Source of the DNA: Amoebophrya sp. A120
Lineage: Eukaryota; Protista; Dinoflagellata
Length of the DNA: 64,000 nt
Assembly (NCBI GenBank): GCA_905178155.1
Contig: CAJINV010000004.1
Span: 8,702,882-8,766,881 of the forward strand
Direction of reading: 5' to 3'
Below the pieces are notes generated by a model. That model had not been told where the DNA came from. It worked only from the letters and a program-made list of their open reading frames with translations, and searched no databases. The position numbers and the translations under genes are program-made. Shown one piece after another: positions 33,647-52,617 of the stretch. The number at the start of each line of letters is the position of its first letter. Position 1 is the stretch's first letter.

Positions 33647-34654
33647 CGCTACTTTGTGAAGTAGTGTGTCGTCGTGAGATGCTGAGAGGAGAAGAGGGCA
33701 AGCGAGGAATTTGGTGCGTGAGCTTTTTGAAATTTGGAGCGCTTGACACGAGAGTGTCTGGCTTGAAAGAATCGCACGGGAAACAACTCTCATGAACAAA
33801 TCAACTTTTGAGCCAAAGCCTGTAGCTGCACTGCTTGTTTTTTTGGGGAACGTGAAAAAATCTACCTGCACAGGGCCTCCTTGTGCGTTTCTGCATGAAA
33901 ATCTGCTTACTAGTACCGCTGTGGTGTTCCGACTTCGATATCTGCATTTTGAGTACACAGCTTTACTATTCTAAGATCGGTCGGCCATGCCTTCTAGTCC
34001 CGCGCGCGTCGCGTCCGTCAGCGATCATTTCTGCTACGAAAATATCTGTCATTCTAGTTACGGCCCTTCTCTTTACGAAATTTGCACCGATCTCGACGAC
34101 CGCACTGATTTTCTCTGGGATCGCACTTACAAGATAGGAACAGAACAACAGGACCTGTTAGCCCGCGTTACCCGCCTTGAGAAAGAAGCATCAGACTTGA
34201 AGCACGCCACGCCCGTAATCTCGGTTGCAAAAGTTTTACAGCGTCTGTCTTCCCGCATTCTGCCACGCAAATAAATCAGATTCTAAGTACAAACACGACG
34301 AGAATCTAGTACAAGCCTAGGGGTTCTACTTTTTTTTCTACTTAGCAAATCCGCCTGTCACGATGAGGAGCGCGCGAGAGAAGCGAGTAGTTGTTCCTGC
34401 CGCAGCACCATTCTTCTTCATCTTGATTTGTTACACTTTGGCGTCTGCTTTTGTGTCCATTGTTTCCGGAATCTGCTTCCATGCAAAGACGAAAAATCAA
34501 AGTACACACACGGGGATCCTACTAGAGCTGAACCTAGAACCAGAGGCGTCGGGTCGTCATGTCTTCCTATTCTCGAGCTCGCGACGCCCTATCTTAGATC
34601 CGTATTCTGTTAGAGGCGACGACGAAGGGGCTACAGGCATACTTTACTTTAACG
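33647..34654 (+). repeat. 5' LTR (cgctac...ttaacg)
   Basis: About 98% identical to 53639-54646 (about 20 substitutions counted by eye, no indels). Confidence 0.95.
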
Positions 34655-34869: not shown

Positions 34870-37800
34870 ATGTCGGGAATTGACTGGTCGGCCTTTCCTA
34901 CCCGCGCGCAGCTCGAGCGGCAGCGAGCAACCAGGCGGCGCATCGGGTTTGTTGAAGGTCTTAACGAGAACACGCGCTGCATCTTCATCCGGAGAGAGCG
35001 GTTTTTTGCGACCCTCGGATCCGTTGATGATGGTGCAAACGCCGACGAATGGATCTGCGTCCGGTGCGTCTCCGGCAAGACTTTTTCTGCAGTAGAAATT
35101 TCCGTCGCGGGGGAGGAAAACCGCGTCGAGCTGCCCACCTGGATCCAGTGCATTATTACCACCGGAGGAAATCCGCCCGTCAAGCGAATCGCGTCGCACT
35201 TCGTCAAGTGCCGCAGCCTCCTGATCTACTTCCCCCGCGCTTCTACACCCCAAGACCGACTGTCTTTTTGCCGCGACATCGCGACCCGCTTTGGTCTCGA
35301 CAACCCGCAAATTGTGACGATGGACGCGCGCTTTGAAGCAGGAGCACAAGGAATCTTCAACACCGCCGGGGAGTTGACCGATGTCGCGGTCGAAGCCTTT
35401 TCGCGCTTTGGAGTCTTTGACAAGATGGGGGACCACAAGTTTACCAGCGATAAGGACCTGATGTCCGAAGCGTCGCAGAAGATGGAATTTTGGGGGTTCG
35501 ACAGCGAAGGCGTTTTTTTGTCTGATTTGTGTGATGAAGAAGTGATCAAATCTATTTCCGACATTGACGCCATTGAGTCTGAGGCGTACGACGAAACCGG
35601 AAAGCTGATGGAGATTGCGATGACGCCCGAGCTCGTGGTCGTTGCCTCCCCGGAGAAAGCCCTGATGGGTACTACCTTGCAGGAGCGCCGCACCATTTCT
35701 AAGAACTTGCAGCCCCGCCTGCTCAATGACGACACTGCCTCGGTGATCCTCGACCCGGTCGACCCACCCGACTCCGTTATCGGAGACCCCGAGAACACCG
35801 TCTCCTCCGACTTGAAAGCCCTGATCACGTCGCTGAAGTACCCGTCCAAACCGAAGAACTTGCTCCCGATCGACGAATACGGCAACTTGCACCTCCCCCC
35901 GTCCCCACTGCCGAAGTCCCTCGCTGCGTCGCGATCCGCATCGAAAGCCGGTGGGGCGGGACCACTCGGAGGTACTGACTCTTCTGGCTCCGACAGTGAC
36001 GCGGTCGACAAAATTTACGCTGGCCTGCAGGAGATGCTTTTCGCGAACGACTTGTTTCCGGTCCGCGCGTGCAAGTACCTCGTCGAGTACGAAGGAACAA
36101 AAGATGATATTCCCCACGACAAGATGAGAGGAATCATGCAAAAAGTCGGAAAACTGCATGAGATTCCGGAGAAGCTCTTGCAGGTCCCGAAGGTTAAGAC
36201 AGGTGGAATTTTTGAGGACGGTCTCAAGTCCCTGCACCTCCCCTCCGACAGCGGGAAAAAGGACGGGCTACAGGTTTTGTTTCTCCAGAACCAGTCGCAG
36301 AATCGCACCTGCACCGACGAAGAGTTCAAGTCTTTCCCGAAACTTGCTATCAGCGGTTCCAACTACATCGCGGAGCGTGACGCCATCTGTCAATGGTTGT
36401 ACAACATCGCCGATGGCAGTTCAATCCGCGATAAAGCAGTGGTTTACTCGAAGGGGTTCTCCGCCATGCAGAGAATCAAAGGCGAAAAGGTTTCTGTGTG
36501 GGTCTCGTGCATGCGCATCGCGGACAACTTCAAAACCGAACCAACTTCGCGACGATTTGAAATTGGCTTCGAGATGGCGCTGGAGACCTTCCAGAGCGAC
36601 CAGTCGAACACCCACGACGGCGAATACATTGGTCTCTTCCGCGTCCTTGTCTCCAACGTCGACGATTATGTGAACAAAATCTTCGCCGAGGACGCTACCA
36701 GCTACCTGGAACTTTTGATGCAGTCGCGCATGATGTACCAAGCCCGCATGAAAATCGACAACGAAGCCCTGGCCGGGTACCGCATTGCAAAAGAAGAGCC
36801 ACGCGCTGTGCAAGACGTTTTTATCCGGCGCTGGCCCAAACTGAACGAAGGGCTCAACCACTGCTACGAACGCTGTGTGCGCAAGCACGAAAAACACCCG
36901 AGCCGGTTCATCGTCGCGGTGTACCACGCTGCTTTTGGAGTTTTGACCCTCCTCCGGAAGCACCAAGATACGATCAAGCCGCGCCCGAAGGAGATTGACT
37001 CCAAAACTTCTAAGGAGATCGCGCCGCACAATCGCATCAAGAAAAACTACTACATCCCCACAAACGACTACACGGAATCATCTTCCTCTTCTTCCGCGAA
37101 GGTAGTTGGTGCGTCTATGAAAAACGCCACTACGGGTGAGGAAGTCCCGGTCTATGACAACGACGACGGATACAGTTCTATGTACGACATCCCGGGAGTC
37201 TCTCCCGCGCCGTCCACGACCCCGGCTTTCCGCTTCAGCTGGGACGGAGATGCTGAAGAAGCGGTGGAGGCGAAGTTTGACCTTGCGATCGGTGACAGCA
37301 GTGATCTCCCCATCTGCCCGGTGGCGGAGGCAGACCGGTGGGATTTGAACAAGTATTCAACTCCCGAGTGCAAGGAGAAGGGTTGGTATCCCCGGTGGGA
37401 GATGCAGCGCGATGGCCAGCATTTTGTCTTCATCATCTATGACAACCGGTCCGACATCCGAAACCGAAAACTCGCGGGACCGGGACCGCTCCCGGGAAAC
37501 CTCTGTATCCTGGCGCTTTTTGGACAGTGCTTCGCGCACATGCGGTGCGGTTGTGCCCACTGGCAGCTCGAAGACTGGGCAGCAGAGGTTTTGCGCAAGC
37601 GCTGCATCGCCGATGGGTTCAAACCGCAAGAGGGCATCGAGCTGATTGCTTTCGCGTTCCACCTCCTTTTGTCGAACTCGAACCGCACATACCACAAGGA
37701 GTTCAAGGGCTTGTCGGTTAAGGACTGCTTCAAGATTGGCTCGGAGAAATACTCCATCAAGAACCCGCTGAAAATCGACCCGCGTACGAAAAAAGACGAC

Positions 37801-37944
37801 CACCGGATGGCAGCTGCGCGCATCACCTTGCCTGTGTACTCGAAGTTCATCAACGACTGCGACGGGTTGTCCCAGGAGCAGAAGGACCGTCTCCTCGAGC
37901 TGAAGCGCATTTTGCAGCGCATCAAGCCGATGTCCCTTTTCTAG
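34870..37944 (+). CDS. Gag-like ORF1 with CCCH zinc finger
   Basis: Long ORF after the PBS (plausible ATG, MSGIDW, 1024 aa); C-x7-C-x5-C-x3-H (CILALFGQCFAHMRCGCAH); the ORF-track start at 34363 lies inside the LTR. Confidence 0.65.
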   Translation: MSGIDWSAFPTRAQLERQRATRRRIGFVEGLNENTRCIFIRRERFFATLGSVDDGANADEWICVRCVSGKTFSAVEISVAGEENRVELPTWIQCIITTGGNPPVKRIASHFVKCRSLLIYFPRASTPQDRLSFCRDIATRFGLDNPQIVTMDARFEAGAQGIFNTAGELTDVAVEAFSRFGVFDKMGDHKFTSDKDLMSEASQKMEFWGFDSEGVFLSDLCDEEVIKSISDIDAIESEAYDETGKLMEIAMTPELVVVASPEKALMGTTLQERRTISKNLQPRLLNDDTASVILDPVDPPDSVIGDPENTVSSDLKALITSLKYPSKPKNLLPIDEYGNLHLPPSPLPKSLAASRSASKAGGAGPLGGTDSSGSDSDAVDKIYAGLQEMLFANDLFPVRACKYLVEYEGTKDDIPHDKMRGIMQKVGKLHEIPEKLLQVPKVKTGGIFEDGLKSLHLPSDSGKKDGLQVLFLQNQSQNRTCTDEEFKSFPKLAISGSNYIAERDAICQWLYNIADGSSIRDKAVVYSKGFSAMQRIKGEKVSVWVSCMRIADNFKTEPTSRRFEIGFEMALETFQSDQSNTHDGEYIGLFRVLVSNVDDYVNKIFAEDATSYLELLMQSRMMYQARMKIDNEALAGYRIAKEEPRAVQDVFIRRWPKLNEGLNHCYERCVRKHEKHPSRFIVAVYHAAFGVLTLLRKHQDTIKPRPKEIDSKTSKEIAPHNRIKKNYYIPTNDYTESSSSSSAKVVGASMKNATTGEEVPVYDNDDGYSSMYDIPGVSPAPSTTPAFRFSWDGDAEEAVEAKFDLAIGDSSDLPICPVAEADRWDLNKYSTPECKEKGWYPRWEMQRDGQHFVFIIYDNRSDIRNRKLAGPGPLPGNLCILALFGQCFAHMRCGCAHWQLEDWAAEVLRKRCIADGFKPQEGIELIAFAFHLLLSNSNRTYHKEFKGLSVKDCFKIGSEKYSIKNPLKIDPRTKKDDHRMAAARITLPVYSKFINDCDGLSQEQKDRLLELKRILQRIKPMSLF

Positions 37945-37997
37945 ACGACCCCACCGATGAACCACGACAAACCGAGCCAACATTTTTCATTGGTGGG

Positions 37998-39503
37998 GTG
38001 AATCAAGATCCCCGCTTGTGCGATTTTTTCGAGGACAAGCAGTCGATCGAAGACGCATTGGCAGTTGAAGATGAAATGACACATGATGAATCTTTTTGCT
38101 CTTCTCAAGAACATTCTCTTTTTTCAGAAATCAGCACTCAGCAGGAGGAGAACGCTTCGCCGGCGGATGTCCCCCCAAGTGAAGGAGTTAGTGACGACCT
38201 CGACATCGCGAGCAACTTCAACGCGATCGGCGAGTCGGAAGAAAACTCATCGGCTTCAGGAGACCAGTCTTTTGGACCAATTTCTTTGATTAGCTTCGAG
38301 GACGCCGACGGAGTAGTGGTTTCTGTTGAATCTCCACCAACGGGCGGCATCACTGGGCCAATCGCGGTGGAAGCCCCCTCGTCAACAGCCTCCGACTCAA
38401 ATCGTTTTTCGCAGATAGCAGATAACACCAACGCTAGTGGGACGGAAAATACCGGCCCTGCGGCACAAATGGAAGAGTCGCAGGACCGGGACCGGTATTC
38501 TTATCATTCATCTTTTGGTGCGAATGATAATACCGGTCCTGTGAGTCCTTTTGATGATAAAACTGAAGATTTGTTGTCCTCGCCTCCGAAACTTCAACAA
38601 CAGCACTGCCTCACAAAACCGTCCTGTTCCGACACTCCCCCTGGAGGGATAACCGATCCCGGCACCGGAACTGGCCAGATGCGATCGAATGCCGATTTCA
38701 ACGAGGCGCGGCTCTTAGGCCCTGCAAGATTCAAGATGGTCCTCCTCGCCCAGCAAGCCGTGCGGGAGTTCGATTGGAGCCATTGGATCACTTCTGGGGA
38801 ATGGCGAGACGAAGTGTCGAAGCAGGATTTTGGATACCTTATCCGCAACAAAGATACGGACGAATCTTACTTCTGCCCTGACATTTCTGCAGAAAATCGC
38901 ATTTCCATTATGCGACCAGGGGTGTTCGGTAACCCGTTCCGCATCACAAACGAAACCGAGAGAGAATCTTCGGCAATCAAGTTTGCAGAATCCCTTGCAG
39001 AAGAAACCGCTACTGACGCGCTGGACGCTTTTTTTCAGAAGCAGGTCGATCCTGATGCTACTGCTAAGTGCGAACTCGTTTGCGTCTGCGCCCCTGACCT
39101 GTGTCGCGGTGTTGTATGGGGAAAGGTGGAACAACTCCTGATCAAAAAACTCCAAGTAGAAACCGCAATAGCAACGTCCCCTACGCCTTCGCGAACTCTT
39201 CTTCCAACGGAACAGCCGGGAATGAATGTATCCTCCTCGGACTCCGACGATTCTCCCACGGCAAAAACAACGGAGATCCCCGCTAACGACCACGAGGAGT
39301 ACGCCCGGTTCTTGCGAGAAGCTACTGCTTTTGAAGAAACGTACGAACAGCGGCAGATTGCGAAGGGCTTCAATTGTACCGGAGTGAAGAAGGTTCGTGA
39401 AAAGGTTGATGGTCGCGGAGGTCCTGTGCCACTCCTTTCCTTCCCGCCGCCGTCGCGATGGCGCACTGTCCGTGAGCCGATTCTCGTTGACCACAAGCTT
39501 TGA
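37998..39503 (+). CDS. Pol N-terminal segment: acidic low-complexity region + DUF4326-like domain
   Basis: RPGVFGNPF...LVCVCAPDLCRG; frame open from 37722 (-1 overlap with ORF1); same frame as the next ORF, separated by one TGA. Confidence 0.6.
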   Translation: MNQDPRLCDFFEDKQSIEDALAVEDEMTHDESFCSSQEHSLFSEISTQQEENASPADVPPSEGVSDDLDIASNFNAIGESEENSSASGDQSFGPISLISFEDADGVVVSVESPPTGGITGPIAVEAPSSTASDSNRFSQIADNTNASGTENTGPAAQMEESQDRDRYSYHSSFGANDNTGPVSPFDDKTEDLLSSPPKLQQQHCLTKPSCSDTPPGGITDPGTGTGQMRSNADFNEARLLGPARFKMVLLAQQAVREFDWSHWITSGEWRDEVSKQDFGYLIRNKDTDESYFCPDISAENRISIMRPGVFGNPFRITNETERESSAIKFAESLAEETATDALDAFFQKQVDPDATAKCELVCVCAPDLCRGVVWGKVEQLLIKKLQVETAIATSPTPSRTLLPTEQPGMNVSSSDSDDSPTAKTTEIPANDHEEYARFLREATAFEETYEQRQIAKGFNCTGVKKVREKVDGRGGPVPLLSFPPPSRWRTVREPILVDHKL

Positions 39504-39530: not shown

Positions 39531-42500
39531 GTGGGTACCCGCATTGTCATGCCCGACAAGTGCGGCTCAGACCCGTTCAAGTACCTCTACCACGGGACAG
39601 ACGAGGACGTTATGGACGCAATCGCAGCAATGGCTTCTGTCAGTTTTCTTTCGACTGAAAAATCCGGCTCCGCCCTGAACATAACCCTCTGCCTCCTCAA
39701 CTTCCAGTTTTTCGAGTGCCAGCACGCGATCCGAGATAAAGACCAATGTGTACCTCCTTGCACCGTGACGAACTTGAACCCTCTGGCCTGTGACCCGAAG
39801 CTCATGACGTCGGCGCAACAACTGTACCACGTCACAAGCACAATGGCCTGTGGAAAGGTCGCTCTTGTCTGGGGCGTGTTTGGGTCAGGAAAAAGTCGAA
39901 CAATCGCCGCGGTCATTTGCGAACTGACACGCAACAAGGTGTGCCGGTGCGTCCACTTTTGCGCGGCACAGAGTCTCGCTCTCGACTCGGTCATTCGGAG
40001 ACTCCATAGTCTTGACGTCCCGACCGTCCGTTTTTCTTCGCGAGCACACCTCGAAAAGCAGAAAATGTCCAAGAAAAGCATCTTATCCTCCTTCGACGAA
40101 ATTTGTTCGCTTGTTGGTGCTGCTAGACCGACGAGCGTATTCGCCGAATATTTGAAGGAGAAGAAGAAGCGTGATCGACTTGCCGCGAGGAGAATCTACG
40201 ACAGAAAACAAGAAAAGCGATTCCTCGAAAGTCGGAAGTGGTGTGTCAAGGTTGTCCTGCGGAACGCAAAAGCAGTGTGCACAACTGTGAACAATTCCCC
40301 GAGTGTCGGGGGCGCGGGAGCCGAGATTACAATCGTCGACGAGGCAGGCCAAATTCCGGAACACGAGATGATCCCCGCAGAAGCAGGCGCGCAGCGGATG
40401 GCTTTGGTCGGAGATCACAAACAACTTCCGCCTGTGATTGTTTCTTCACGAAAACTCCCACCGCCGAAGGCAGCAGTAGCAGGACAGTCCGAAAATGCGA
40501 AACTTCTTCCCCCGACTGTCCCGGGACCAGGCAGCTTTGACGTCACTCCGCTGCGGAAGAGCCTTTTCGAACGTCTGATAACAAATGCAGCCGGAGAAAC
40601 AACAAACGCCACTGCTTTTCTTGACACACAGTTCCGCTGTCCACCTGTTCTCGCTGCACACCTGAGTGCCGAGTACTACGAGGGGAAGCTGCGAAGCGCC
40701 GAAAATGCTCCTGCAGAAGCAAAGTACACTTTTTCGCACCAGTTCGTCGGAGTCGATACAAAACCAGACATTTTTCTAGCGCGACAAGCAACAGACCGGA
40801 TAAAGCCGTACGTCTCCCCATCAACAGCAGAACGCGTCCGAGAAATGCGAGACTTTCTTGCTTCCAAGGGTGTGCTTCTGTCCGACATTCAATGTATCTC
40901 AGTCTACAAAGCCGCCGGCTCTGGGATGATCCCGCTTGTGAAACCTCTCGCCCTCGAGGGGATCGACGCATTCCAGGGAGGAGAAGTCCAAGTTTTGTTT
41001 GCGCTGATCCTGACTCCGCCTTCCGGCCCTACCGAGTGGGCGACAGACCCGCGCCGCAATTTGGTTCTGTTGTCGCGCGCTATTAGCGCTGCCTTCGTCT
41101 TTTACCCGCGCGTCGTCCAGGATACCGACACGTGCTTGAAGTCGATGGACATCTACATTCGCAACGCCGAGAAGTGTATGCATATTAGCGACACCTCTTC
41201 TATCCCCATCACCGTCGAGAAGGTTTCTGCGCCAACAGTGACAACAGTTGCCGACACGAAGGATCCAGCAATTGTCGCCGAGATTCTAAAGGACCTCGAC
41301 GGGGAAAAGACAGCGGACGACCCAGCTGAACAGGCCACGATGTTTTGCTTGCGCGAGAGTTTTTCCTCAGAACTCCACCGCTTCAATTCCGTCAGCGGCA
41401 CTGACGACTTAGAAGACTTGATGTTCCTTGACTTCGAAGATCTTGCCCTGGAGGTCAACGACAAGGCAGTCGAGGCAGCTGTTCTTGGACACCACGGAGG
41501 GAAAGAATATGCTCTTGAAGCTCTCCGCGCGGCGGAAGCAGCAGACGACGGCCACTGGCTGGACCCACACCTTTTTGGCAAAATTAAGAAAGGAGAAAAC
41601 TCGCAGACTTCGAAGCTAGAGCAGAAGAACAAATACGGGAATTTCGAAGTCTCCGCTAGTGAGATTTTTGTAGCGAAAAACGGGTGCAGTTTTTGGGTTG
41701 GAAACTTCGCCGCGACCAGTCTCCCTGGGTGGTACGTGGTCACTAACTGCACCTCGAATGTAGAAGACGCCAACAATTGCGACTTCTACCGTCGAGTCCC
41801 CCTGGTTTCCGGTGCGGAAAGCCGGAATGTCCGCGCTTCGCGAAAAAATCTGAAGTGGATTCTTCGGCACGCACAAGCAGAGAAGAAGACTTTGCTTCAC
41901 TGCGTCTGGGGACTTGATCGCTCTCCTGCTCTTTGCCGTGTCGTCGCGTACTTTATCGATGGGCTCGAAACACCTGCTGTCGAGATTTTCCGACTGTTCT
42001 CCGATGCCAGACCTCGCGTTAGGTACAGCTTCCGCGAGTACGACAAGTTTTGGCGCGACGCAATCCAAGCGCAACCTTCAACGAGAGTCCGCCTCCTAGA
42101 CGACAACTGCATGATCGAGTCTCTCCTTGACGGAGCCCGCGCCAACCCGAGCAAAATCATCGACGAGGACGACTTTATCCTTGAAAAATGTGTGCAGGTG
42201 ACCTCGAAAGCGATCGCTGCGATTGAAGCGAAGCCGCCCCGTTGTCCTCGATCCGCGATTCCACCACGAACATACATGATGAGCTTTCGCCTCGAGTCTT
42301 ACAACCCCGACTCATTGAACATCTTCCTTTCAGATCCATCGCGAGCATCTGACGCTGCAGAAGTTTTTGTTGCGCTCGCGCCGTCCTGTCTCGGACTCCC
42401 AGAAGCAAAACTTTCAACGAAAACGGCGAAGACTGCGCGCGATCTTGTTGCTGAGCGGAATTATGAGCTCACAAACTTCCTCAACGAGCGCGAAGAAGGA

Positions 42501-45500
42501 AAGCATGGGTGTTCGGTTGCAATCCCCGTCGACTGCCCGCTGAAACCGATCGCGATTCGCCGAGGTCCAAGCAAAGAAGGCCGCATTGCCATCGTGGAGT
42601 GCCTCTACTTCAGCGTCATTTTCGAGTACGCGCCAAACCGTGTCAACGACGCAGCGAACGCAGAATATGACAACGCCATCGCAGGATGCCTGCGAGAGCT
42701 GTGGAAGAGAACGCAAAAGCCATTTGTTTTGGCAGGCGATAGAAATATCGCGCCAGAAAAGAGAGATATTGCGCCAAGTCCACGGCTTTCTGCAGAGCAG
42801 GTCCCTTCCACCCGGCAGACAGACCGTGACGCGTACGACAAGTTGATCAAGGAGTTTTCACTTACCGACGCGTGGAGGTGGTGCAATCCGACCGCTGAAG
42901 GGCACTACACCGGGTTCCACCAGCAGGGGAACTGTCTCCGTGACAACGTCGGGGCTCGAGTCGACCTTTTTCTTCTGTCACCAGGGATGATGCCGCTCCT
43001 TCAAAACTGCCAGATTGTCACGACCGTCCACAAACGTCTTGGAGATCATCATCCCGTCTACTGCGACTTTTTGTTGGACTTTGGGGACGAAGTCATTCGG
43101 TCTGCCGCAGCGAAAAGAGGCATTGCAAAAGCTCTCGCCGCCCCGGCAGTCGACCCAGCAGGAAGGCAAAACTCTTCTCTTTTTGTGGGCTCCGTCGCGC
43201 ATGACGAGCGGTTTGGAACACTAGACTTCGAAGAACAGCCCGTGGCAGAGGAGGAGGAACAAGAAGAAGGTAAATCTGAGCAGAAGACAGAGTTTGCAGA
43301 GGAAGACGAGAAGTACAAGAAAATCGAGGAAAATTTCCTACGCTCGATCGGGGTTCTCAAAGAATCACACGCGTACCAGAAGGCTCTCGCGGTTTTGCGG
43401 AAGTGGATTGACGGCCGTCTCGCAGCAGGGTACACAACTTCGCAAGTGTATCAGATGTTGATGATGGACGACGCAACCGCTCCTGCGTACGCACTGGACG
43501 ACGCGTTTTTGAAATTTCTTCTCAATCTCGGGGCGGTGATGGAACTCGGGGGTAAATACGGAGTCGACAAAACGAAATTCTTGTCGCTGGTCGAGAAAAG
43601 TTGTGGAATGATTTTGAAGGGCGGCTGGCTATCCGTCCCGGAGAAGATGGTGAACGACATCAAAAAACTCGCTCGCTTACCACCAACGCCGCGCCTGATG
43701 AGACGGCTCCTGGGGAAATTAGCTTTCTGTCCAAACACCCTTGGGCTTGAGTACTCTCGCCAGGTCCCGATCCTGATCGACCTTTCTCGGAAAACCCTGC
43801 AGGAATACATCCGAAAACTCCAAGAACCAGCAGCAATTCACGCCATGGAAGTAATTATTTCTTCTTCTTCTGTCACGCCGCTTTGCCCAATTGATTGGGA
43901 TCTCGTCGATAGCGGGAAGTGGGTCGTCATTGGAATGCCTGATGCTCATTGTGTCGGGTGGGGAGGCGTCCAGTTTAGCATCGACCTCGACATATGGCTA
44001 AGCGACGACTGTTCCGATGTGCGTGCTGCGATCCGAATCCACGCAATCAAAAGCACCCCGCTCCCACCGCGACTGCGAAACCGGTGTAGCGCCGAACATG
44101 AATGCTACGCGACTCTCGGGCACTATCAGTACATTGACTACTTGATGTCGGGGCGAAACCGGTTTTGGTGCAACGACAACACAAATATCGCCACGATCGA
44201 GGATGAGATGCACCGCTGTACGGTAAAAAGTTTCAACTCTGCGATCGGGTATTTGAAAAGATTTTTTGACCAGCCGGGTCCCACGCGTCTCATCCTCCCC
44301 GAGATGTTGATGGCGTGGGGAGATGTTGCTGGCCGTCTCCACCGAAACTGCGTTGTCGCGGCGTCTCTTGTGCAAGAGACTTTGTCTCAACCGAAGCAGG
44401 CACTGAAGATCCTGTTTCCGCACGTAGACTTCGAAAAACGAGGCGAAAGCAAACGAATGAACATTATCACGGAAGAGGAGGTGAAGGATTTCGCAGCAGC
44501 AGCAGAAGAAGAAATGCATTCCTCCTCTTTCCGCGCGTGCTCCCTCGTTGGAGTCGACCCTAGTGTTGAGGAACATGATGTCAATGCGTTCAATTTCTCG
44601 GTCGTCGATCTTGTCGAAGAATTTCCGACACCGGAGACACTTGATGGGTTTACGTACGACGACCCCTTTTTGCACCGCGCCCCTGTCTCTCGGTCCTTCA
44701 GCTCAGCAGAAGTGATGGAGGTAGAAGCTGCGCCGGCATTGACCGATGATGAAGACCCTGACCCAGTCCTGGAGCCGGTCGCGCAATATGTGATTTCAAA
44801 CCCAGAGCAGTGCTCTACGCTCTCGGTAGACTTGATTTCTACCGCAGATTCGTCCGCCACGATCTGCTGCCACGAGCTCTACCTCGACACGGACGACCAC
44901 GCTCTTGCGCGGTCAGGACATCTATTCGTGAAAAGATTCAGCACCGACGAAAACGCCGTCGACTTTGCTCTCGTAATCGGCAGTGTTTGGGACGGGGCCA
45001 ACCCTGACGCTGTGTACGGCGACGACGCATTTACAATTGTTTGCAGCGAGCTCAAGCTGAAGATGAGTGGCGAAGAACTGCGGAAAAAGTGCGACGGAGT
45101 CCTGCAACACCGAGTCTGTGCCGACGAGTATCCCTTGATGACTGTCTCGGAAGTTGACATGAAACAGGTCTCGTTGGGGTTCCGCGCACAACAAATTGTC
45201 GACTTTTCCTACTGTGTCGACCTCCTTTCCTTCACTCCTGTTGCTGGGTTCAAGGGTTTCGACCTGACAACAATGATGAAAACGACCCGAATTTTGCGTG
45301 TGAGGCAAGAATCCGCGGGGGTGTGTAGCGTTTCGGATTTGGAGCTCGCTTGGCGCATTCGCGAAGACAAGATCGAGCGCGACGACACGTGGACCCCGAT
45401 CCTCGCGGTCACAGCACCTGCAGTGCGAAAAGCATGGCTTAACGCCGTCTACGACTTCAACGTGCTTTCTAGTTTCCGTGTGGGTGGAAAACGGCATGGA

Positions 45501-48467
45501 GATGCTGAGAGCGATAGTGAAGAAGGTAGTCGCAAGAAGCGGAAGCCGGCTGGAAAATTGTTTGACCCTCCGCGAGATCGGCCCACGGCAAAAACAGATG
45601 AGGACCTCCCCACGGCAAAAACAGAACAGAACCCTGTCCAAGACCCTGCTTCATCTTCGCGCGACTCGCCCCCAGATGAAGGTCCCCCACCTACAGAAGA
45701 ACGTGAAGCAGGTCCGATTTGTTATGACATTGGAGATGACTCTGATGACGACATCCCTGTCTTCGAACAAATCAAGAACCGAAAGCGAGAAATCACGCAT
45801 AACGACGTCCAGAACATGTACCGCGAGCTTTTGCAGGAGTCTGATTTTCTTGGGCTGCCGACGATTTTGCGAGAAGTAGGCGTCGACAAGAAACGAGCGA
45901 AGGGGCCCATCCCTCTGACGGACGCCGAAGTTTTGAAGATCCATCAGCTCGACGACCACCGGCCTGCGAAAAGTCTATCCTACGGTCTTCGTGTCGCGGG
46001 GTATCAAGTATCGGAAGAACAGGCACAACGATCAATTTTGAAATGCTGGCGCGGTGGGCCGCTTTTCAACAAGTTTTTCCCGAAGAAGAAAGCCTCGCTG
46101 CGAATTCCGAGTCCGAATGAGTGGAGCACCGACCTCTTCTGGCTCCCGTGGTCAAACGGTCGGCTGAACCTCCGCGACAAATTGTTTGAGATCACGGACG
46201 AACCTTTCTCGGCGGAAGAGTGGAAAAATGTTGCCCGCTGCGACATCTACAGCATCATTGGAAACTCGCGGTGGGACACGCGCACTACCCCGATCGAAGA
46301 TGGCACGCTGACACTCAACTTCATGCAGTTCGAGAAGCAGATAAAGTGCAAGCCGACCATCATCCTTGTTAGCGATTCCTTCGCGCGAGGGTCAGCAGTT
46401 TTGAACTACGGCGCTATCCGCACCGACGTCCCAATGGTCCCCTACCACAGCCAAGACGCGGCTACATCTATCAACGGTCCGCAGCAGTTTACGTTCCGTG
46501 TTCTCTGGTACGACAACCACGAGCTGGCAGTAGAACTAAAACTCACCCGGCGTGAGAAGTGCATGATGATCGATGTCCGAATGAACTGCATCCCAGCGGG
46601 GAATATCAACATCAACTACCTTCTGCCTGGGCGAGACACAGAATTTATGATGCAGCGCGCCCTTATCGGCTTGGCGGACATGTACGTGGCCCGCGCTCTC
46701 CTTCAACCGCGAGTCCAGAGAATGCTCCACATGCGGATCAACGATCGGCACGGACTGACGATGCCGCCGCACTGCGATACATCTTGCAACAGAGAGGAGA
46801 TGGCGTGCTTCAAACACACAAAACACGGAATGGCGGAGGCGCTGCTAGAAGCGCAGAAGAGGACTACGATTACCTCCGCTGGTGGTCGTCCTCTGACCGT
46901 GCAGGGTGAACAGTGCAAATTTGAAAAAGCAAGACCTGCGTCCCTTCCGATTGTGTTCTTCGCTATTTACCCGCGGCACAAAGCGGTGAAGTTGGAGATT
47001 TGCCACGGTGACTGGTCCAGTTATGCAGTCAACCCGCTGCAGAGCGACCCGATCGAGGGTCCTGCTCCTGCAGAACAACTTGTCGCCAAGATCGGATCAC
47101 CGCGCCCTGCAGGATTCTTCCGCGTCCGCGACTCAAACGGATCTGCAATTGCCTTCGAAGCTCGGCGAGGGCGCGAACCGCTCATGCACAAAATCGGACT
47201 GCACAAGCTAGAAGACGGAGTTCTTTGCTTCACTCGCGGGAACTACGTGCCTGGCACTCCACGACACCTGTACGGGTATAAAATCCCCGGAGGAGTAACA
47301 ATAAATGGAGTAAACCGAGCCGCGCTCTACTGGCAGTGGCATGTTGAAGATCGCGCACTCCCTGAGGGTCAGTTCCGCACTGTCGCTCGCCTTTGGATGC
47401 GACGCCGAGTAGAAGAAGACGGAGAACTTGAAACCTGGGCGGGGAGTGGCACCTTCAACCTCCTTGCGCCTGCAGTAACAGAACAATCTGTCGCGGAAGA
47501 ATTTCTTACTGCAGAAACTGGGATCATCGACGAGACAAGCCTGCCTGACAACCAGAACTACACGAATGCGCTTGCAGCTGTTTCTTTGCATGAAGCGACC
47601 TGCATGTGCCGCAATATTGCTGAGCCACTCCGCGCACGTGCGGTCCAGCGATGTCCTAGCGGGTTTCTTGTCCCTCTGAGCGACAACAGACGCGTGACTA
47701 TTTCGGACGACTCTCTCCGCGCATGGACAAGTCATTCTGAGTTCCGAGAAGCAGCGTGTCGCGCGATCTTCGACAGCGCCCCTGTTGCTGACTCATTTGT
47801 TTCAACGGAAGGAGTTTTCTTCGAAGCAACAACAACTACGAATAAATTTGACGCAGGAACGGAGTGGAAAACTGAAAAAACATCAGCCCTCGAGGACGTC
47901 GCCCTTGCTTGCGCCCAGTTTTACACGGGCGAGCAGTGGAGTGAAGAGTTCGCGACTGCAACTTTCAACTCATGCCGGTACGCGCCGGACGACGGCGAAA
48001 CCTCAATCAACATGGCGGCTCCGGTCATCGTCGAAACCTCGCTCGATGATTTTGTTCTCCCCGAAGCTGCTTTCCTGCGCGCTGCACCTGCGGAAGAGGG
48101 AAATTCGTCCTTGGCACCTGCCGCGGTGCCAGTAGTAGCAAAACAAAAACAGGCTGTCGGACAGTTTTCCAAGAGAGCAACTGAGTCTAAATATGTCGTC
48201 ATCAAGGCGTGTTTAGATGGGCGCATCAGAAGTGCTGTGTCTCTCGACAAGTTTGAACAAGACGCGTTTTACATCGGGAAGGACGCCACCGGCCCAGCGT
48301 TCTACATGCGAGATAGGGTCTCGTTTTTTCTCGCGAAGCACAACGCGCCCCCAACACCGAAAGAGGGAGCAACCCTTGAGCAGATCCTCATCTACATCAT
48401 TTGCCCCGAGACAGCCTGGAGTGCAATGAATTGTCGACAGTGGTTGTGCGTGTGGTCCAACTTTTGA
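39531..48467 (+). CDS. Pol main segment: Upf1-like SF1 helicase, dual-specificity phosphatase-like, ExoIII/APE nuclease, RT C-half, RNase H, aspartic protease-like, integrase-like
   Basis: GVFGSGKS/DEAGQ/GDHKQLPP/SLFERL/TQFR/DAFQGGE; HCVWGLDRS; GDRN/DAWR/RVDLFL/GDHHPV; LMMDD...KTKF...RRLLGKLAF; PDAHCVGWGG/EHECYA; ADSSAT...DAVYGDD; HQLDDH/EWSTDL/VSD/PYHSQ. Confidence 0.85.
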   Translation: MGTRIVMPDKCGSDPFKYLYHGTDEDVMDAIAAMASVSFLSTEKSGSALNITLCLLNFQFFECQHAIRDKDQCVPPCTVTNLNPLACDPKLMTSAQQLYHVTSTMACGKVALVWGVFGSGKSRTIAAVICELTRNKVCRCVHFCAAQSLALDSVIRRLHSLDVPTVRFSSRAHLEKQKMSKKSILSSFDEICSLVGAARPTSVFAEYLKEKKKRDRLAARRIYDRKQEKRFLESRKWCVKVVLRNAKAVCTTVNNSPSVGGAGAEITIVDEAGQIPEHEMIPAEAGAQRMALVGDHKQLPPVIVSSRKLPPPKAAVAGQSENAKLLPPTVPGPGSFDVTPLRKSLFERLITNAAGETTNATAFLDTQFRCPPVLAAHLSAEYYEGKLRSAENAPAEAKYTFSHQFVGVDTKPDIFLARQATDRIKPYVSPSTAERVREMRDFLASKGVLLSDIQCISVYKAAGSGMIPLVKPLALEGIDAFQGGEVQVLFALILTPPSGPTEWATDPRRNLVLLSRAISAAFVFYPRVVQDTDTCLKSMDIYIRNAEKCMHISDTSSIPITVEKVSAPTVTTVADTKDPAIVAEILKDLDGEKTADDPAEQATMFCLRESFSSELHRFNSVSGTDDLEDLMFLDFEDLALEVNDKAVEAAVLGHHGGKEYALEALRAAEAADDGHWLDPHLFGKIKKGENSQTSKLEQKNKYGNFEVSASEIFVAKNGCSFWVGNFAATSLPGWYVVTNCTSNVEDANNCDFYRRVPLVSGAESRNVRASRKNLKWILRHAQAEKKTLLHCVWGLDRSPALCRVVAYFIDGLETPAVEIFRLFSDARPRVRYSFREYDKFWRDAIQAQPSTRVRLLDDNCMIESLLDGARANPSKIIDEDDFILEKCVQVTSKAIAAIEAKPPRCPRSAIPPRTYMMSFRLESYNPDSLNIFLSDPSRASDAAEVFVALAPSCLGLPEAKLSTKTAKTARDLVAERNYELTNFLNEREEGKHGCSVAIPVDCPLKPIAIRRGPSKEGRIAIVECLYFSVIFEYAPNRVNDAANAEYDNAIAGCLRELWKRTQKPFVLAGDRNIAPEKRDIAPSPRLSAEQVPSTRQTDRDAYDKLIKEFSLTDAWRWCNPTAEGHYTGFHQQGNCLRDNVGARVDLFLLSPGMMPLLQNCQIVTTVHKRLGDHHPVYCDFLLDFGDEVIRSAAAKRGIAKALAAPAVDPAGRQNSSLFVGSVAHDERFGTLDFEEQPVAEEEEQEEGKSEQKTEFAEEDEKYKKIEENFLRSIGVLKESHAYQKALAVLRKWIDGRLAAGYTTSQVYQMLMMDDATAPAYALDDAFLKFLLNLGAVMELGGKYGVDKTKFLSLVEKSCGMILKGGWLSVPEKMVNDIKKLARLPPTPRLMRRLLGKLAFCPNTLGLEYSRQVPILIDLSRKTLQEYIRKLQEPAAIHAMEVIISSSSVTPLCPIDWDLVDSGKWVVIGMPDAHCVGWGGVQFSIDLDIWLSDDCSDVRAAIRIHAIKSTPLPPRLRNRCSAEHECYATLGHYQYIDYLMSGRNRFWCNDNTNIATIEDEMHRCTVKSFNSAIGYLKRFFDQPGPTRLILPEMLMAWGDVAGRLHRNCVVAASLVQETLSQPKQALKILFPHVDFEKRGESKRMNIITEEEVKDFAAAAEEEMHSSSFRACSLVGVDPSVEEHDVNAFNFSVVDLVEEFPTPETLDGFTYDDPFLHRAPVSRSFSSAEVMEVEAAPALTDDEDPDPVLEPVAQYVISNPEQCSTLSVDLISTADSSATICCHELYLDTDDHALARSGHLFVKRFSTDENAVDFALVIGSVWDGANPDAVYGDDAFTIVCSELKLKMSGEELRKKCDGVLQHRVCADEYPLMTVSEVDMKQVSLGFRAQQIVDFSYCVDLLSFTPVAGFKGFDLTTMMKTTRILRVRQESAGVCSVSDLELAWRIREDKIERDDTWTPILAVTAPAVRKAWLNAVYDFNVLSSFRVGGKRHGDAESDSEEGSRKKRKPAGKLFDPPRDRPTAKTDEDLPTAKTEQNPVQDPASSSRDSPPDEGPPPTEEREAGPICYDIGDDSDDDIPVFEQIKNRKREITHNDVQNMYRELLQESDFLGLPTILREVGVDKKRAKGPIPLTDAEVLKIHQLDDHRPAKSLSYGLRVAGYQVSEEQAQRSILKCWRGGPLFNKFFPKKKASLRIPSPNEWSTDLFWLPWSNGRLNLRDKLFEITDEPFSAEEWKNVARCDIYSIIGNSRWDTRTTPIEDGTLTLNFMQFEKQIKCKPTIILVSDSFARGSAVLNYGAIRTDVPMVPYHSQDAATSINGPQQFTFRVLWYDNHELAVELKLTRREKCMMIDVRMNCIPAGNININYLLPGRDTEFMMQRALIGLADMYVARALLQPRVQRMLHMRINDRHGLTMPPHCDTSCNREEMACFKHTKHGMAEALLEAQKRTTITSAGGRPLTVQGEQCKFEKARPASLPIVFFAIYPRHKAVKLEICHGDWSSYAVNPLQSDPIEGPAPAEQLVAKIGSPRPAGFFRVRDSNGSAIAFEARRGREPLMHKIGLHKLEDGVLCFTRGNYVPGTPRHLYGYKIPGGVTINGVNRAALYWQWHVEDRALPEGQFRTVARLWMRRRVEEDGELETWAGSGTFNLLAPAVTEQSVAEEFLTAETGIIDETSLPDNQNYTNALAAVSLHEATCMCRNIAEPLRARAVQRCPSGFLVPLSDNRRVTISDDSLRAWTSHSEFREAACRAIFDSAPVADSFVSTEGVFFEATTTTNKFDAGTEWKTEKTSALEDVALACAQFYTGEQWSEEFATATFNSCRYAPDDGETSINMAAPVIVETSLDDFVLPEAAFLRAAPAEEGNSSLAPAAVPVVAKQKQAVGQFSKRATESKYVVIKACLDGRIRSAVSLDKFEQDAFYIGKDATGPAFYMRDRVSFFLAKHNAPPTPKEGATLEQILIYIICPETAWSAMNCRQWLCVWSNF

Positions 48468-50493
48468 CATCAACGGCGCGATCAACCATTTCCGCGACAT
48501 CGCTGACAACACAACAGACGAGAACAAGAAGAATTGGGCACAGTCGCTAGCAGATAAACTTCGTTCTTGCAAGAACGTCTTTGACAAGGCCCGCCTGAGC
48601 CTTTGCGATGGTGCTGTTACCGAACGGCTGGCGATCACCCTCGGAGACGAAGCAGTCGAGATTCTTCTTTCGCACTACGAAGGTCCCCACTGCGTCTCCG
48701 GGTTCACCGGCGGGTCCCGCGACTTGAGCCCCACCGTGTTGCAATTCAAGGTGTACTTGTGCGACCGGCGCACTGGTCGACTCCATCTAACCCCATGTGT
48801 CAACAACTATGTGACGCGGCCGTGGTGTCGGAGTGCCCCCACCTGGGAAACTCTGGGCGTTGCCTTCGGAAGCTGTGATCTAGCCCGTTTCAACTTCCGA
48901 CTTTCGAAAGAAGAGCCAGAGGTTATTTTTGATCTCCCCGACGGTGTCACGGTTCACGTCGCAAACCTTGTCAAGTTCCCAGACGCACCATTGTCGCCGG
49001 TAACAGAATCAGCAGCACAAGAAGCCCGAGTGCTCAGCATCACAAAGCCATCGAAGGAAGAAATTGAAGCGCTCCGCGGAGAAGAGGCAGACAAAACAAT
49101 AACTCTCCGTGCGGGGCAACAAGCAACAGCGGTGGTCGATATTCCTGTTCTTGCTGGAACAAAAATCAAAACTTCGCTCACGACCCCGACAGATGCAGAG
49201 CGGCTTCTCCTCGTCCACAATGGCCATGTCGTGCCTCTGATTATGGCTGCACCTCCGTCGCACCAAGTTACATTACGAGTGGAAGCAATCAAGCAGAAGG
49301 CGCGCATCAAAAACGGAGTCATCGGAATTACTATCACTCCGTTCCACGGAAACTCATCGCACAACTGTAAGGTCCAGTTAGGGGAACTCGCGGAAGAAGT
49401 TGGTCTTGATGCTGCAATGAACCTCCTCACCGGTGAGCCGCGTGATTTGGGTCCCGGTTTAGAGCAGGCAGGAAGTGGCCAGCTCAACGCAGCGGGCGCT
49501 GTCTCGAATATTCCAGAACTCACCCCTGCCTACATGGAAGAATGTCGGAAAGAACACGCGAAATTTATCGAGACAAAGAAGAACAGCAGCGAAGGGCCCG
49601 ACAAGTTTCTTTTCCACGTGTGGCGACAGTATCTCAGTACCGCAGACTGCGAGGCTTTGTATACTTCTTGCGCTCGAGAAGGTCGCGACATCGAGAAAAC
49701 AATTAAGCTGTGCGAGGCGTTCCTCTTCATCGCCGCTGTCGAGTTCGGGCACAAAACGCAGATGACGGAGGGGCACACGATACCGATCTTCAGATTCCCT
49801 GGTTGCGGGTCGGAGCTTATAAATCATAGCAAGACCCCACCGGAACAACCCAAGCGTTTCCGAAACCCGCCGGATTTGGATGAAATAATGCGGATGCTGA
49901 GCGACCAGGATGTGATGAGTGACATCGTCGAAGCCTTGTCTGCTACGAAACACGGGTCGGCCAAGTTCGTGAGCATGACCATGTGGGCCCAGCGGTCTAA
50001 CCGTTTCCTCGGGCGGTGGGTTTCGATCCTGAAGGGGCCAAACATCATGAAGCAAGAAACATACTGCTTCTCGATCATCCCCTCCCAGATCGTCGACGGT
50101 CTCCGGCACCATCTGACAATCGGTTACATCGCGGTGGACATAAAGAGAGCACTTCAAGGAGTCCGCGTTTTTACCGAGCTGGGACTTTGGTTGGCGATGA
50201 CAATAGGAGACACTGTTTTTATACCCAAGAGGGCCAGTCTCGGTTTTACCAGCTGGCCGGGTATTTTTGGACAAATCGTCAACCCGATTTTCCAGGGACT
50301 CCGAGCTGGTCCAGAAGCAGCAGCAGCCTTCTTCTTGGAGCTCGTCGACCCGCTTCTAGAACTACACGCAGAAATGGAGAAAGTCGGATTGGCAGACGCG
50401 TGCCGGTCGTGTTCACACTCATACCGTGCGTCAATTACAGAAGAGAAGAAACAGCTGCACGCCTCCCAGCGGAGTGGGAGAGAACAAGAGTAG
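48463..50493 (+). CDS. Pol C-terminal segment: dUTPase-like beta region + RT N-half (motifs A and B)
   Basis: Frame open from 48430 (+1 relative to previous ORF); PKRFRNPP, RWVSILKGPN, AVDIKRALQGV (motif A), PKRASLGFTSWPGIFGQIV (motif B); no YxDD follows. Confidence 0.75.
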   Translation, partial: FDINGAINHFRDIADNTTDENKKNWAQSLADKLRSCKNVFDKARLSLCDGAVTERLAITLGDEAVEILLSHYEGPHCVSGFTGGSRDLSPTVLQFKVYLCDRRTGRLHLTPCVNNYVTRPWCRSAPTWETLGVAFGSCDLARFNFRLSKEEPEVIFDLPDGVTVHVANLVKFPDAPLSPVTESAAQEARVLSITKPSKEEIEALRGEEADKTITLRAGQQATAVVDIPVLAGTKIKTSLTTPTDAERLLLVHNGHVVPLIMAAPPSHQVTLRVEAIKQKARIKNGVIGITITPFHGNSSHNCKVQLGELAEEVGLDAAMNLLTGEPRDLGPGLEQAGSGQLNAAGAVSNIPELTPAYMEECRKEHAKFIETKKNSSEGPDKFLFHVWRQYLSTADCEALYTSCAREGRDIEKTIKLCEAFLFIAAVEFGHKTQMTEGHTIPIFRFPGCGSELINHSKTPPEQPKRFRNPPDLDEIMRMLSDQDVMSDIVEALSATKHGSAKFVSMTMWAQRSNRFLGRWVSILKGPNIMKQETYCFSIIPSQIVDGLRHHLTIGYIAVDIKRALQGVRVFTELGLWLAMTIGDTVFIPKRASLGFTSWPGIFGQIVNPIFQGLRAGPEAAAAFFLELVDPLLELHAEMEKVGLADACRSCSHSYRASITEEKKQLHASQRSGREQE

Positions 50494-51303: not shown

Positions 51304-52617
51304 ATGTCGAAGCAGATTGACGAAAAAACCGGAGAACCGTTACTCCGCGGCGGCACTCCGGCCTTGCATTGGTCCGGCGCCAGTAAGAAAAAGGGAGGAA
51401 ATAAAACCACGGTGAAAGAAGAGCCTTCTCCGACCAAAACTACCGGATCCGCTGGAAATAAGGGGAACAAGTCTTCCGCTTCCGGTGCGAACAAATCCGC
51501 CGCTTCCGGCGCGAACAAGCCCGCTTCCGGCGCGAACAAAGCCGCTGCTTCTGGCGCGAACCAGACGCCCGATTCCGGTAAGAACAAACAGGCGAAATCC
51601 GAGGACGAGTTAGTGTTGCAGAAATCGAAAAAGCGCCGGAACAGCCGCGGCCAATTCTGCTCCGACCCCGCGAAGCGCATCAAGGAAGAAATTACGGACA
51701 AGCAGCTGGATGAAGAATTGGAATACGATGTCGCCCGCGCGGACGAGATCCGCGCCGCCGCTACTCCGCCGATGGTGGGAAGTGAAGGAAAGAAGGGATA
51801 CCGCACCAAGTCGGGACCGGTCGTGAAGGAAAAGCAGGCGCAGGCTTCGGTGGGGAAAGAAGGATTGCCGGAAAAATATGTGCATATTCCGTCGAGTGCC
51901 GAGCTGTTCGTCAAAGACCAGTGCGAAAAGCTGAAAAAGAACCATCAGGAGTTGTTCGACACGCACAAGGAGCTGCTCGCCGACTACACCAAAACCCACA
52001 AGAAGGCGGTCGAGAACAAGGAAAAATCCGAGGCGATGAAGTTTGAAAAGCAAGGACTCGCGGCGGACTACCACAAGCTGCACGAGGAAAACATGTCCAT
52101 GAAGAGCGCCCGGAAGATGGGCGAGCTGCAGGCGGAACTTCGTCTGTGTCGTAAAGAGTTGGAAGAATCTCGCCAGGCCCGGCATGGTGACAGGGTGATC
52201 ACCCGTCGCCGTTTGCGAGATCGCTACTCCCACAGCTCCGCGGCCGATACCCACTCCTCCGAGCTCATCGGAGATGACTCCGATTCTGGGTCGAATTTTA
52301 CCGCCGGCATCGACGCTGCGCGCAACAAGGGGAAGAAAGGAGGAAAGTACGACGGTGGAAAGAAAGGGAAATTTTTTGGTGGTGATTTTGTCGACGGCGG
52401 CTGGATGAACGGAAAATACGGTGATGCCGGAAAGAAAGACGGGATGAAGGGAAAGGACGGCGACGGCAAGAAGGGCGGTCCCATCGGTCCGGCGGACCGC
52501 AACCGCGATGATGACTCCTCCGACTCCGTCTTCGGCCCCACCCGTCGCTTCACCAAGGGCGGAAAGAAGGATAAGAATGGTGGAAAGGCGGGCGAATACA
52601 AGGGTGAAAAGAAATAA
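51304..52617 (+). CDS. Accessory ORF of the LTR element: Lys/Gly/Asp-rich with SGANK repeats and central coiled coil
   Basis: 437-aa ATG ORF with coding-like composition between pol and the 3' LTR; no recognisable family. Confidence 0.75.
   Translation: MSKQIDEKTGEPLLRGGTPALHWSGASKKKGGNKTTVKEEPSPTKTTGSAGNKGNKSSASGANKSAASGANKPASGANKAAASGANQTPDSGKNKQAKSEDELVLQKSKKRRNSRGQFCSDPAKRIKEEITDKQLDEELEYDVARADEIRAAATPPMVGSEGKKGYRTKSGPVVKEKQAQASVGKEGLPEKYVHIPSSAELFVKDQCEKLKKNHQELFDTHKELLADYTKTHKKAVENKEKSEAMKFEKQGLAADYHKLHEENMSMKSARKMGELQAELRLCRKELEESRQARHGDRVITRRRLRDRYSHSSAADTHSSELIGDDSDSGSNFTAGIDAARNKGKKGGKYDGGKKGKFFGGDFVDGGWMNGKYGDAGKKDGMKGKDGDGKKGGPIGPADRNRDDDSSDSVFGPTRRFTKGGKKDKNGGKAGEYKGEKK

Follow-up and report, generated by a model that had tools for sequence, protein, structure and literature searches.

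Long terminal repeat (LTR) retrotransposons of the Ty3/gypsy group (Metaviridae-type) have a Pol polyprotein with the canonical order protease, reverse transcriptase (RT), RNase H and integrase, PR-RT-RH-IN (PMC6431247). Ty1/copia elements (Pseudoviridae) have an RVT_2-type RT and the order PR-IN-RT-RH. One giant member of the gypsy group is Daidara, from a springtail. Another, the planarian Burro, exceeds 20 kb and has a polyprotein of 4,900-5,100 residues with extra enzymatic domains, its cargo being MATH, BIR, BCL2, ankyrin, midasin-like and dUTPase-like domains and Env (PMC6431247), while the orchid element Gypsy_Pa keeps a host-type RNA enzyme, AlkB (PMC9289625). Among the non-LTR elements, the insect TRAS/LINE (long interspersed nuclear element) group has a full SF1 helicase motif set of RNA-virus type (PMC5563155). 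In the splipalmiviruses, which are narna-like mycoviruses, the palm of a divided RNA-dependent RNA polymerase (RdRp) is in two pieces, with types set by the segment that bears motif B (PMC11405419). The 64,000-nucleotide stretch of Amoebophrya sp. A120 analysed here (contig CAJINV010000004.1, positions 8,702,882 to 8,766,881 of the forward strand; "the window" below) holds a 21,000-bp LTR retrotransposon whose RT is split into two pieces, in swapped order, within a polyprotein that also carries a Upf1-like helicase, a phosphatase-like domain and an APE1/ExoIII-like nuclease.

The element is a previously undescribed variant of LTR retrotransposon, real and conserved. No account of this family was found in the literature covered, which left out most subscription journals and Repbase Reports, and the phrase "split reverse transcriptase" did not occur in the papers checked for it. 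The Amoebophrya genome paper treats LTR elements in general terms only (PMC7789003). As far as the available texts go, none of the precedents (giant gypsy elements, helicase LINEs, divided RdRps) combines this cargo set with a split RT; Burro and Gypsy_Pa have normal PR-RT-RH-IN, and what was available on them mentions no Upf1 helicase, ExoIII or split RT (PMC6431247, PMC9289625).

The window element shares with Ty3/gypsy its LTRs, a 5-bp target-site duplication (TSD), a predicted -1 Gag/Pol frameshift, an RVT_1-type RT with thumb, connection and RNase H, and an integrase of retroviral fold. It differs in its order, RT-C/RH - IN - PR - RT-N against a contiguous RT in PR-RT-RH-IN, in its CG..CG rather than TG..CA LTR ends, and in that no primer-binding site or polypurine tract was found on the coding strand. 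TG..CA ends are not universal among Ty3/gypsy elements. The predicted workings are thus Ty3/gypsy-like, yet the Pol order that defines that group is not the one found here, and the RT trees contain family members only. From Ty1/copia it is separated by its RVT_1-type RT and by an integrase that comes before the protease. The insect elements have a virus-type helicase in a non-LTR setting, whereas here a cellular Upf1-type core occurs in an LTR element. The splipalmivirus RdRp pieces lie on separate segments, whereas the two RT halves share one polyprotein, in variable order, and are presumably parted by proteolysis.

Long terminal direct repeats and a TSD bound the element, and it is an LTR retrotransposon. 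It encloses the region (39700..43085) for which an earlier note, made from the letters alone, had described the three cargo enzymes as fused into Pol. This is correct, as the same frame runs on into the RT C-terminal half (C-half), RNase H and integrase. The split, permuted RT lies just beyond that region and was absent from the note. The domains follow the order helicase, phosphatase-like domain, nuclease, RT C-half, RNase H, integrase, protease and RT N-terminal half (N-half). Five plus-strand open reading frames (ORF1 to ORF5) occupy the element, ORF3 being in the same frame as ORF2 and separated from it by a single TGA. The features are:

33642..33646, no strand: left copy of the TSD, GTCAA, the same 5-mer as at 54647-54651
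33647..34654, plus: left LTR, 1,008 bp, ends CG..CG, not TG..CA
33987..34274, plus: 95-codon ORF within the LTR, open in both LTRs
34870..37944, plus: ORF1, likely Gag; counted from its likely start it has 1,024 codons, in a frame that is open from 34321
37722..39503, plus: ORF2, start of the Pol frame, with an acidic low-complexity region, DUF4326 and an in-frame TGA at 39501-39503
37936..37999, plus: likely -1 frameshift signal, in which a 14-bp stem (37948-37999) follows a U-rich run that ends at the ORF1 stop
39504-48467, plus: ORF3, 2,987 codons, carrying helicase, phosphatase-like domain, nuclease, RT C-half, RNase H and integrase
39813..41123, plus: Upf1-like SF1 helicase core (Pfam, motifs and PDB matches)
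41661..42080, plus: cysteine-phosphatase domain resembling dual-specificity phosphatases (DSPs), P-loop HCVWGLDRS at 41898-41924
42261..43088, plus: APE1/ExoIII-like nuclease with a full catalytic set but a replaced abasic-site pocket
43374..43835, plus: RT C-half, with motif C LMMDD (43458), motifs D and E and thumb (profile and Atlas lead of 0.92-0.93)
43899..44423, plus: predicted RNase H, D-E-D-D (alignment and Atlas lead)
44781..45416, plus: conserved domain X1, common to relatives P0001-P0003
45786..47351, plus: predicted integrase, with HH-C zinc-finger remnant, two-Asp core and C-terminal beta domain (model and alignment)
48171..48960, plus: likely aspartic protease, IVDSG at 48430 (motif level only)
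48430-50493, plus: ORF4, holding the RT N-half
49042..49449, plus: beta-rich domain at the place of the supposed dUTPase, whose motifs were not seen
49753..50361, plus: RT N-half, with fingers, motif A AVDIKRA (50131) and motif B' LGFTSWPGIF (50239); the ORF ends at 50493
51304..52617, plus: ORF5, Lys/Gly-rich, with a coiled coil
53602..53691, no strand: long hairpin between the inner flank and the right LTR (its first 53 bases), -51 kcal/mol
53639..54646, plus: right LTR, a direct repeat of the left LTR
54647..54651, no strand: right copy of the TSD, GTCAA, matching the left copy

The RT is interrupted between motifs B' and C. The N-half is found 6.3 kb downstream, past the integrase and protease, and no fingers or motif A lie ahead of motif C, the nuclease directly preceding the C-half. 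By profile, the C-half matches the RTs of Moloney murine leukaemia virus (E 3e-6) and cauliflower mosaic virus (7e-4), and the N-half matches residues 197-293 of the latter. A family profile of eight rows (six relatives and the two window pieces) aligned with the single RT chain 8r0s as two reversed pieces (whole-sequence E 9e-6), chain residues 299-394 at profile positions 188-284 and residues 197-293 at 1990-2091, so that pieces adjacent in the chain are separated by 1,700 positions of the profile. The Atlas RVT_1 lead for the N-half is 0.95. The motif A Asp is kept in all 16 rows, and the DD of motif C in all 20 rows that cover it. By these alignments the enzyme is an RVT_1-type, retroviral/LTR-type RT with three catalytic Asp, in two pieces. 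In the window Pfam matched no RT, RNase H or integrase, and among 14 relatives scanned it found RVT_1 in one, below threshold; being nearly invisible to Pfam, such elements are likely under-counted. A single-sequence fold of the RT C-half and RNase H reached a predicted local distance difference test score (pLDDT) of only 37.7.

When the region behind the nuclease was searched against 1.84 billion representative sequences, 23 proteins matched: 15 long ones (1,387-5,098 residues) and eight fragments (111-424). P0003 comes from the gene models of Amoebophrya sp. AT5.2 and the others are from environmental and genome collections; scans of viral contigs found no relative, and word-based protein searches with the ORF3 region, the RT C-half/RNase H profile (longer proteins) and the nuclease profile gave no matches. 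Eleven of the 15 long relatives share the swapped order of the window, one has the halves in normal order but separated, and three have them linked. In the separated case (P0001) the N-half follows the nuclease and the C-half is last, 1,800 residues away. In the linked ones (P0010-P0012) an insertion, partly of low complexity, joins the halves, with 228-269 residues from motif B' to motif C (about 113 in the fragment P0006), and here too the integrase is ahead of the RT.

Trees were made of family members only, omitting rows shorter than 120 residues, and largely the same groups recur in those of the N-half, C-half, RNase H and integrase. P0001, with the opposite order, is the nearest full-length relative of the window in the RT N-half, RT C-half and integrase trees (94/87, 99/97 with fragment P0004, and 98/97). 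The order of the halves requires four to five changes on the trees, where the minimum is two, and for the order seen in the window the starred branches of the C-half tree impose no fewer than four. The trees are unrooted and give no ancestral order. Opposite orders in close relatives mean that position in the polyprotein is immaterial, as expected if the halves are excised. A second element, on a 16,900-bp contig of the short-read run X1, shares with the first four collinear patches (nuclease, motif C, RNase H and integrase tail) and is diverged beyond alignment elsewhere; its nuclease-to-motif C spacing of 558 bases, against 519 in the window, leaves no space for an N-half there.

The alternative that the two halves are rejoined into one normal chain, by trans- or back-splicing or by protein splicing, is very improbable. 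Amoebophrya does have trans-spliced leaders and non-canonical introns (PMC7789003), and the best-named relative, P0003, comes from its gene models, but both orders and the linked form in close relatives would demand differing splicing routes. Moreover, each long relative is an uninterrupted frame (as on contig L001), and the N-half ends at the C-terminus of the polyprotein with no intein-like tail, judged by eye. The explanation we prefer, and consider reasonably probable, is a giant LTR polyprotein with a two-piece, order-swapped RT, whose halves, likely freed by the protease, would reassemble, likely aided by the helicase and exonuclease. That the architecture is real and conserved is close to certain; the mechanism as a whole is somewhat favoured on present sequence evidence.

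An assembly artefact was considered and rejected. A short-read contig of 16,354 bp covers 34612-50965 with no differences at a depth of 43.6, so the domain order, stop and frame changes are not long-read assembly errors; the run (X1) may be the window's own source, and thus rules out long-read error rather than providing a second sample. Borders of other LTR copies in this run coincide with those of the element, with loose ends at 34654 and 53638, while the window element itself is at single-copy read depth. Its LTRs differ by 20 substitutions and no indels over 1,008 bp (98.0% identity). The 95-codon ORF of the LTR gave no Pfam match; its stop codon varies between the two LTRs yet remains a stop, and a further LTR copy has a 3-base deletion inside it.

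ORF1 is likely Gag, a label taken from its position and the frameshift, and is 28% identical to ORF1 of the relative on L001 (E 1e-28). The stem after its stop has a z of -3.9, with none of 200 shuffles equally stable. In L001 a G_GGU_UUU in the Gag frame and a stem are found at the same junction, followed by a single frame of 4,493 codons, and for this reason expression of Gag-Pol by -1 frameshifting is likely; it would likely yield a product of about 5,200 residues. RNA stems after the ORF2 stop (z -0.67) and at the ORF3/ORF4 junction (z -0.37) are no better than shuffles, and programmed read-through at either site is unsupported. The frame shifts within 48430-48467, inside the protease region, where P0001-P0003 have one continuous frame, and P0001 and P0002 have no stop ahead of the helicase. 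The TGA at 39501 and this frame change are probably lesions, since P0001-P0003 lack both and there is no significant RNA structure. In a simulation of 1% neutral drift about 4 new stops were expected and 1 was observed (P about 0.08, not significant). The insertion has probably aged to 2% LTR divergence, and the window copy, with its single in-frame stop and its frame change, has probably lost autonomy. RNA runs X4 and X5 (same species label, perhaps another strain) matched only the A-rich run 51158-51196, and Rfam and tRNA scans of the window gave no matches.

These lesions, the single-copy depth and the lack of recognisable priming signals might suggest a rearranged dead copy, or a passenger of another element, in which cargo and RT pieces are neutral. 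This is hardly credible, and is already largely refuted: 14 further frames of 2,000-5,100 residues share the design and, at 20-40% identity, have all of its catalytic Asp, and the P0001 cluster has eight near-identical full-length members of 4,020 residues, 1-5 residues off the representative.

An RNase H is placed by alignment behind the thumb at the expected spacing, though without any Pfam match; DEDD is found in 20 of 23 aligned rows, with one DEDH and two rows cut short, and the Atlas RT_RNaseH lead covers 28% of one cluster. The integrase model (ORF3 residues 1760-2619) has a mean pLDDT of 47, with 179 residues over 70, and resembles retroviral intasomes (Foldseek E 1.4e-6; VIA Z 12.2, root mean square deviation 2.7, 125 aligned); its core Asp pair is kept in 15 of 15 rows. 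The protease assignment is likely, at the level of position and motif, the Asp being present in all 11 rows, within a D[ST] motif in ten and as DC in one. The structure prediction for domain X1 was of low confidence.

Among the cargo, the helicase is, by its AAA_11 (E 6.3e-19) and AAA_12 (E 1.5e-11) matches, both over the Pfam cut-off, of the Upf1-like SF1B type, as had been proposed, while Viral_helicase1 scored 19.6 bits, under its cut-off. Motifs I, II, III, V and VI were found, and the closest solved structures are UPF1 (1e-18), NAM7 (1e-12), IGHMBP2 (9e-10) and SEN1 (1e-5). No Pfam zinc-domain match corresponding to the N-terminal CH domain of Upf1 occurs in ORF2 or ORF3. DUF4326, at 38892-39116 in ORF2 (E 7.8e-7), varies in location within the family: it precedes the helicase in the window, lies past the protease region and ahead of the RT N-half in P0002 (contig L001, 16172-16372), and follows the phosphatase in P0021; as far as these matches go, it is another mobile module of the family.

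All motifs that the earlier note had named were found where it placed them, in frame in ORF3, although its phosphatase stands only in part: the CX5RS loop is there, but family support is weak, with the Pfam DSPc match (E 4.7e-6, 26.9 bits) short of the 33.5 cut-off and a three-row profile reaching DSP structures only at E 0.013-1. The CX5R[ST] loop is intact in six of seven rows. No conserved Asp that could be the general acid was seen in the alignment, judged by eye, which is compatible with an RNA triphosphatase, as the capping enzyme MCE1 also has no WPD motif (PMC9038691). However, in the relative P0020 an unrelated PP2C phosphatase occupies the same slot, between helicase and RT, and this substitution leans toward a protein substrate.

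The nuclease has APE1 structures as its best matches (E 7e-16), ahead of bacterial ExoIII (2e-6), with no LINE endonuclease chain among its 52 PDB matches to E 1, which favours the proposed cell-type rather than LINE-type assignment. Its score against TIGR00633 xth is 95 bits, under the cut-off of 99.05; in this, and in being fused into a retroelement Pol, it is unlike APE1 and ExoIII. The EEP catalytic set is kept, with equivalents of N68, E96, Y171, D210, N212, D283, D308 and H309 in APE1 numbering, part of which follows PMC5785985. As to catalytic conservation across copies, which had been suggested as a check, the EEP set is complete in the window and the core catalytic Asp are kept in relatives. 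The equivalents of F266/W280, which form the abasic-site pocket, are G/A, S/S, H/M, S/Q and A/E, a replacement in five of five copies. In APE1, the F266A change speeds up the exonuclease, its burst about 20-fold and its steady-state rate about 50-fold, and the APE2 enzymes, which lack a pocket of the F266/W280 type and which the window nuclease resembles in this, prefer exonuclease substrates (PMC5785985). The replaced pocket thus points to a 3'-5' exonuclease over an abasic-site enzyme.

The earlier note had instead proposed that the nuclease, with a dUTPase as partner, mends the cDNA at abasic or uracil-derived sites, and that the phosphatase processes RNA 5' ends. Complete APE1 catalytic residues, APE1 as best match and the MCE1-like lack of a general acid speak for this version. 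It is nevertheless improbable: repair is not borne out by the pocket replaced in every copy, and the "dUTPase-like region" could not be confirmed, as none of the five dUTPase catalytic motifs was seen by eye in a nine-row alignment and neither Pfam nor NCBIfam gave a match. RNA 5'-end processing is also opposed by the nearest phosphatase structures, which are (weakly) protein DSPs, and by the PP2C in the same slot. Given the replaced pocket and the missing dUTPase motifs, the nuclease is better read as a 3' trimmer or proofreader.

Across the 15 long relatives the helicase occurs in eight, the phosphatase in six, the window-type nuclease in four and all three in two (P0001, P0002); P0041, a longer member of the P0018 cluster, has helicase and nuclease too. 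Several representatives begin in mid-polyprotein, so some of the absences are not real. The second element of run X1, with its nuclease patch, also supports recurrence. Other cargo consists of the PP2C of P0020, NADAR in P0015 and P0018, and EEP-type motifs in P0017 that the nuclease profile left unscored. Because of this patchy distribution, no cargo domain is essential family-wide. Between the window and L001, synonymous sites are saturated (proportion of synonymous differences, pS, 0.66-0.79 throughout), so a dN/dS ratio is not computable. The proportion of nonsynonymous differences (pN) is 0.45-0.52 in the cargo, 0.45-0.53 in protease, RT, RNase H and integrase core, and 0.52-0.58 in two linkers and domain X1. 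As the pN of the cargo matches that of the core, the cargo is kept by selection at core level, although the contrast with the linkers is small. Against the earlier note's own caution that the domains might be absent from other copies or neutral, they recur in relatives and are constrained like the core.

Alternatively, with the same architecture, the cargo may target the host, the helicase protecting the long, frameshifting transcript from decay or silencing, or remodelling it to that end, and the phosphatase damping host signalling. The interchangeable slot enzymes would fit this, and like roles have been proposed for the virus-type helicases of insect LINEs (PMC5563155) and for the Burro cargo (PMC6431247). 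We regard it as unlikely, as a low-abundance Pol frame just before the RT would, we infer, suit enzymes acting within the particle, and the nuclease, by family, acts on DNA ends.

In the mechanism we favour, the protease would cut out the RT halves, and the palm would probably reassemble non-covalently via the helices that flank the split. The helicase, packaged with the RNA, could with about an even chance unwind structure before the RT and at strand transfers along a 20-kb template. It is equally conceivable that the nuclease serves as a 3'-5' exonuclease/3'-phosphodiesterase, clearing mismatched or blocked cDNA ends and thus proofreading for the RT, which has no such activity of its own. 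A role for the phosphatase, optional and acting on protein, is suggested more tentatively.

Several observations weigh against this explanation. The N-half profile match alone is weak (5 bits, i-E 23), so that its assignment leans on motifs and the Atlas lead. The third acidic residue of the integrase DDE was not identified in the alignment, and Gag and protease have no profile or PDB match. In the cargo, motif VI of the window helicase is without its usual Asn, the helicase tree has no starred branch, the P-loop of P0002 is degenerate (VCGTGMRKC), and the helicase is missing in seven and the window-type nuclease in 11 of the 15 long relatives, some of them cut short. The domain profiles started from window sequence and went through iteration on the same proteins, which inflates their E-values; Pfam and blastp served as independent checks. 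LTRs were seen for the window element alone, and contig L001 holds none. On the coding strand no TGG primer-binding site follows the left LTR, and no polypurine tract adjoins the right LTR, the nearest purine 13-mer being 83 bases off. The hairpin at the right LTR (z -5.0; none of 200 shuffles as stable) sits where a polypurine tract is expected. Within it, on the minus strand, a candidate starting with TGG lies 7 bases inside the LTR, and may base-pair with the 3' end of a tRNA.

Two relatives have further content. Residues 465-1289 of P0003 have copia-type rve and RVT_2 matches ahead of the family domains, and are probably a fused or nested second element. In L001 three more plus-strand ORFs, possibly part of the element, follow Pol at 17831-23167, of 198, 1,028 and at least 472 codons; the two longer have no Pfam match and the first two no NCBIfam match.

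Elsewhere in the window, 8477-29611 consists of three near-identical 5,762-bp tandem units and a diverged partial fourth. On the minus strand they encode fragments of a pyridoxal-dependent decarboxylase (match to Pfam PF00282, E 2e-14 at 27980-29173), scattered over several frames via introns or lesions. A 17-base motif is found 13 times (5 plus, 8 minus; up to 2 mismatches) in 9231-28011 and 59522-60463, partly inside the decarboxylase copies, and its second cluster (59.3-60.5 kb) may be another decarboxylase-related copy. At 48-5084, a minus-strand ORF of 1,231 codons (957-4652) lies between 431-bp direct repeats that are 99% alike. By eye, its RT-like motifs follow a GIY-YIG-like one, an arrangement known from Penelope-like elements that have an N-terminal endonuclease; Pfam matched only DUF7491, below cut-off. 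A minus-strand frame of 616 codons (30142-31992) matches CCHC zinc knuckles (E 8e-6) and, weakly, a SPOUT methyltransferase (E 4e-4), and minisatellite arrays with a 16-bp unit occupy 62011-62960.

It is possible, if slightly short of probable, that the family is a lineage of marine-protist giant LTR elements at superfamily level, with a shuffled two-piece RT, its own proofreader and helicase, CG-ended LTRs and a priming route that can do without the usual primer-binding site and polypurine tract. Such a lineage would have a natural split RT that standard RT profiles overlook. If the explanation proposed here is true, an RT active site made of two polypeptides, in any gene order, would widen the definition of what is recognisable as an RT. 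An element with its own helicase and 3' exonuclease would offer a way to study how RNA-templated genomes exceed the usual 10-kb limit, and the natural split between motifs B' and C may be relevant to RT tools of split or inducible design. By analogy with the divided RdRps, the same weak point of the palm may have been exploited twice.

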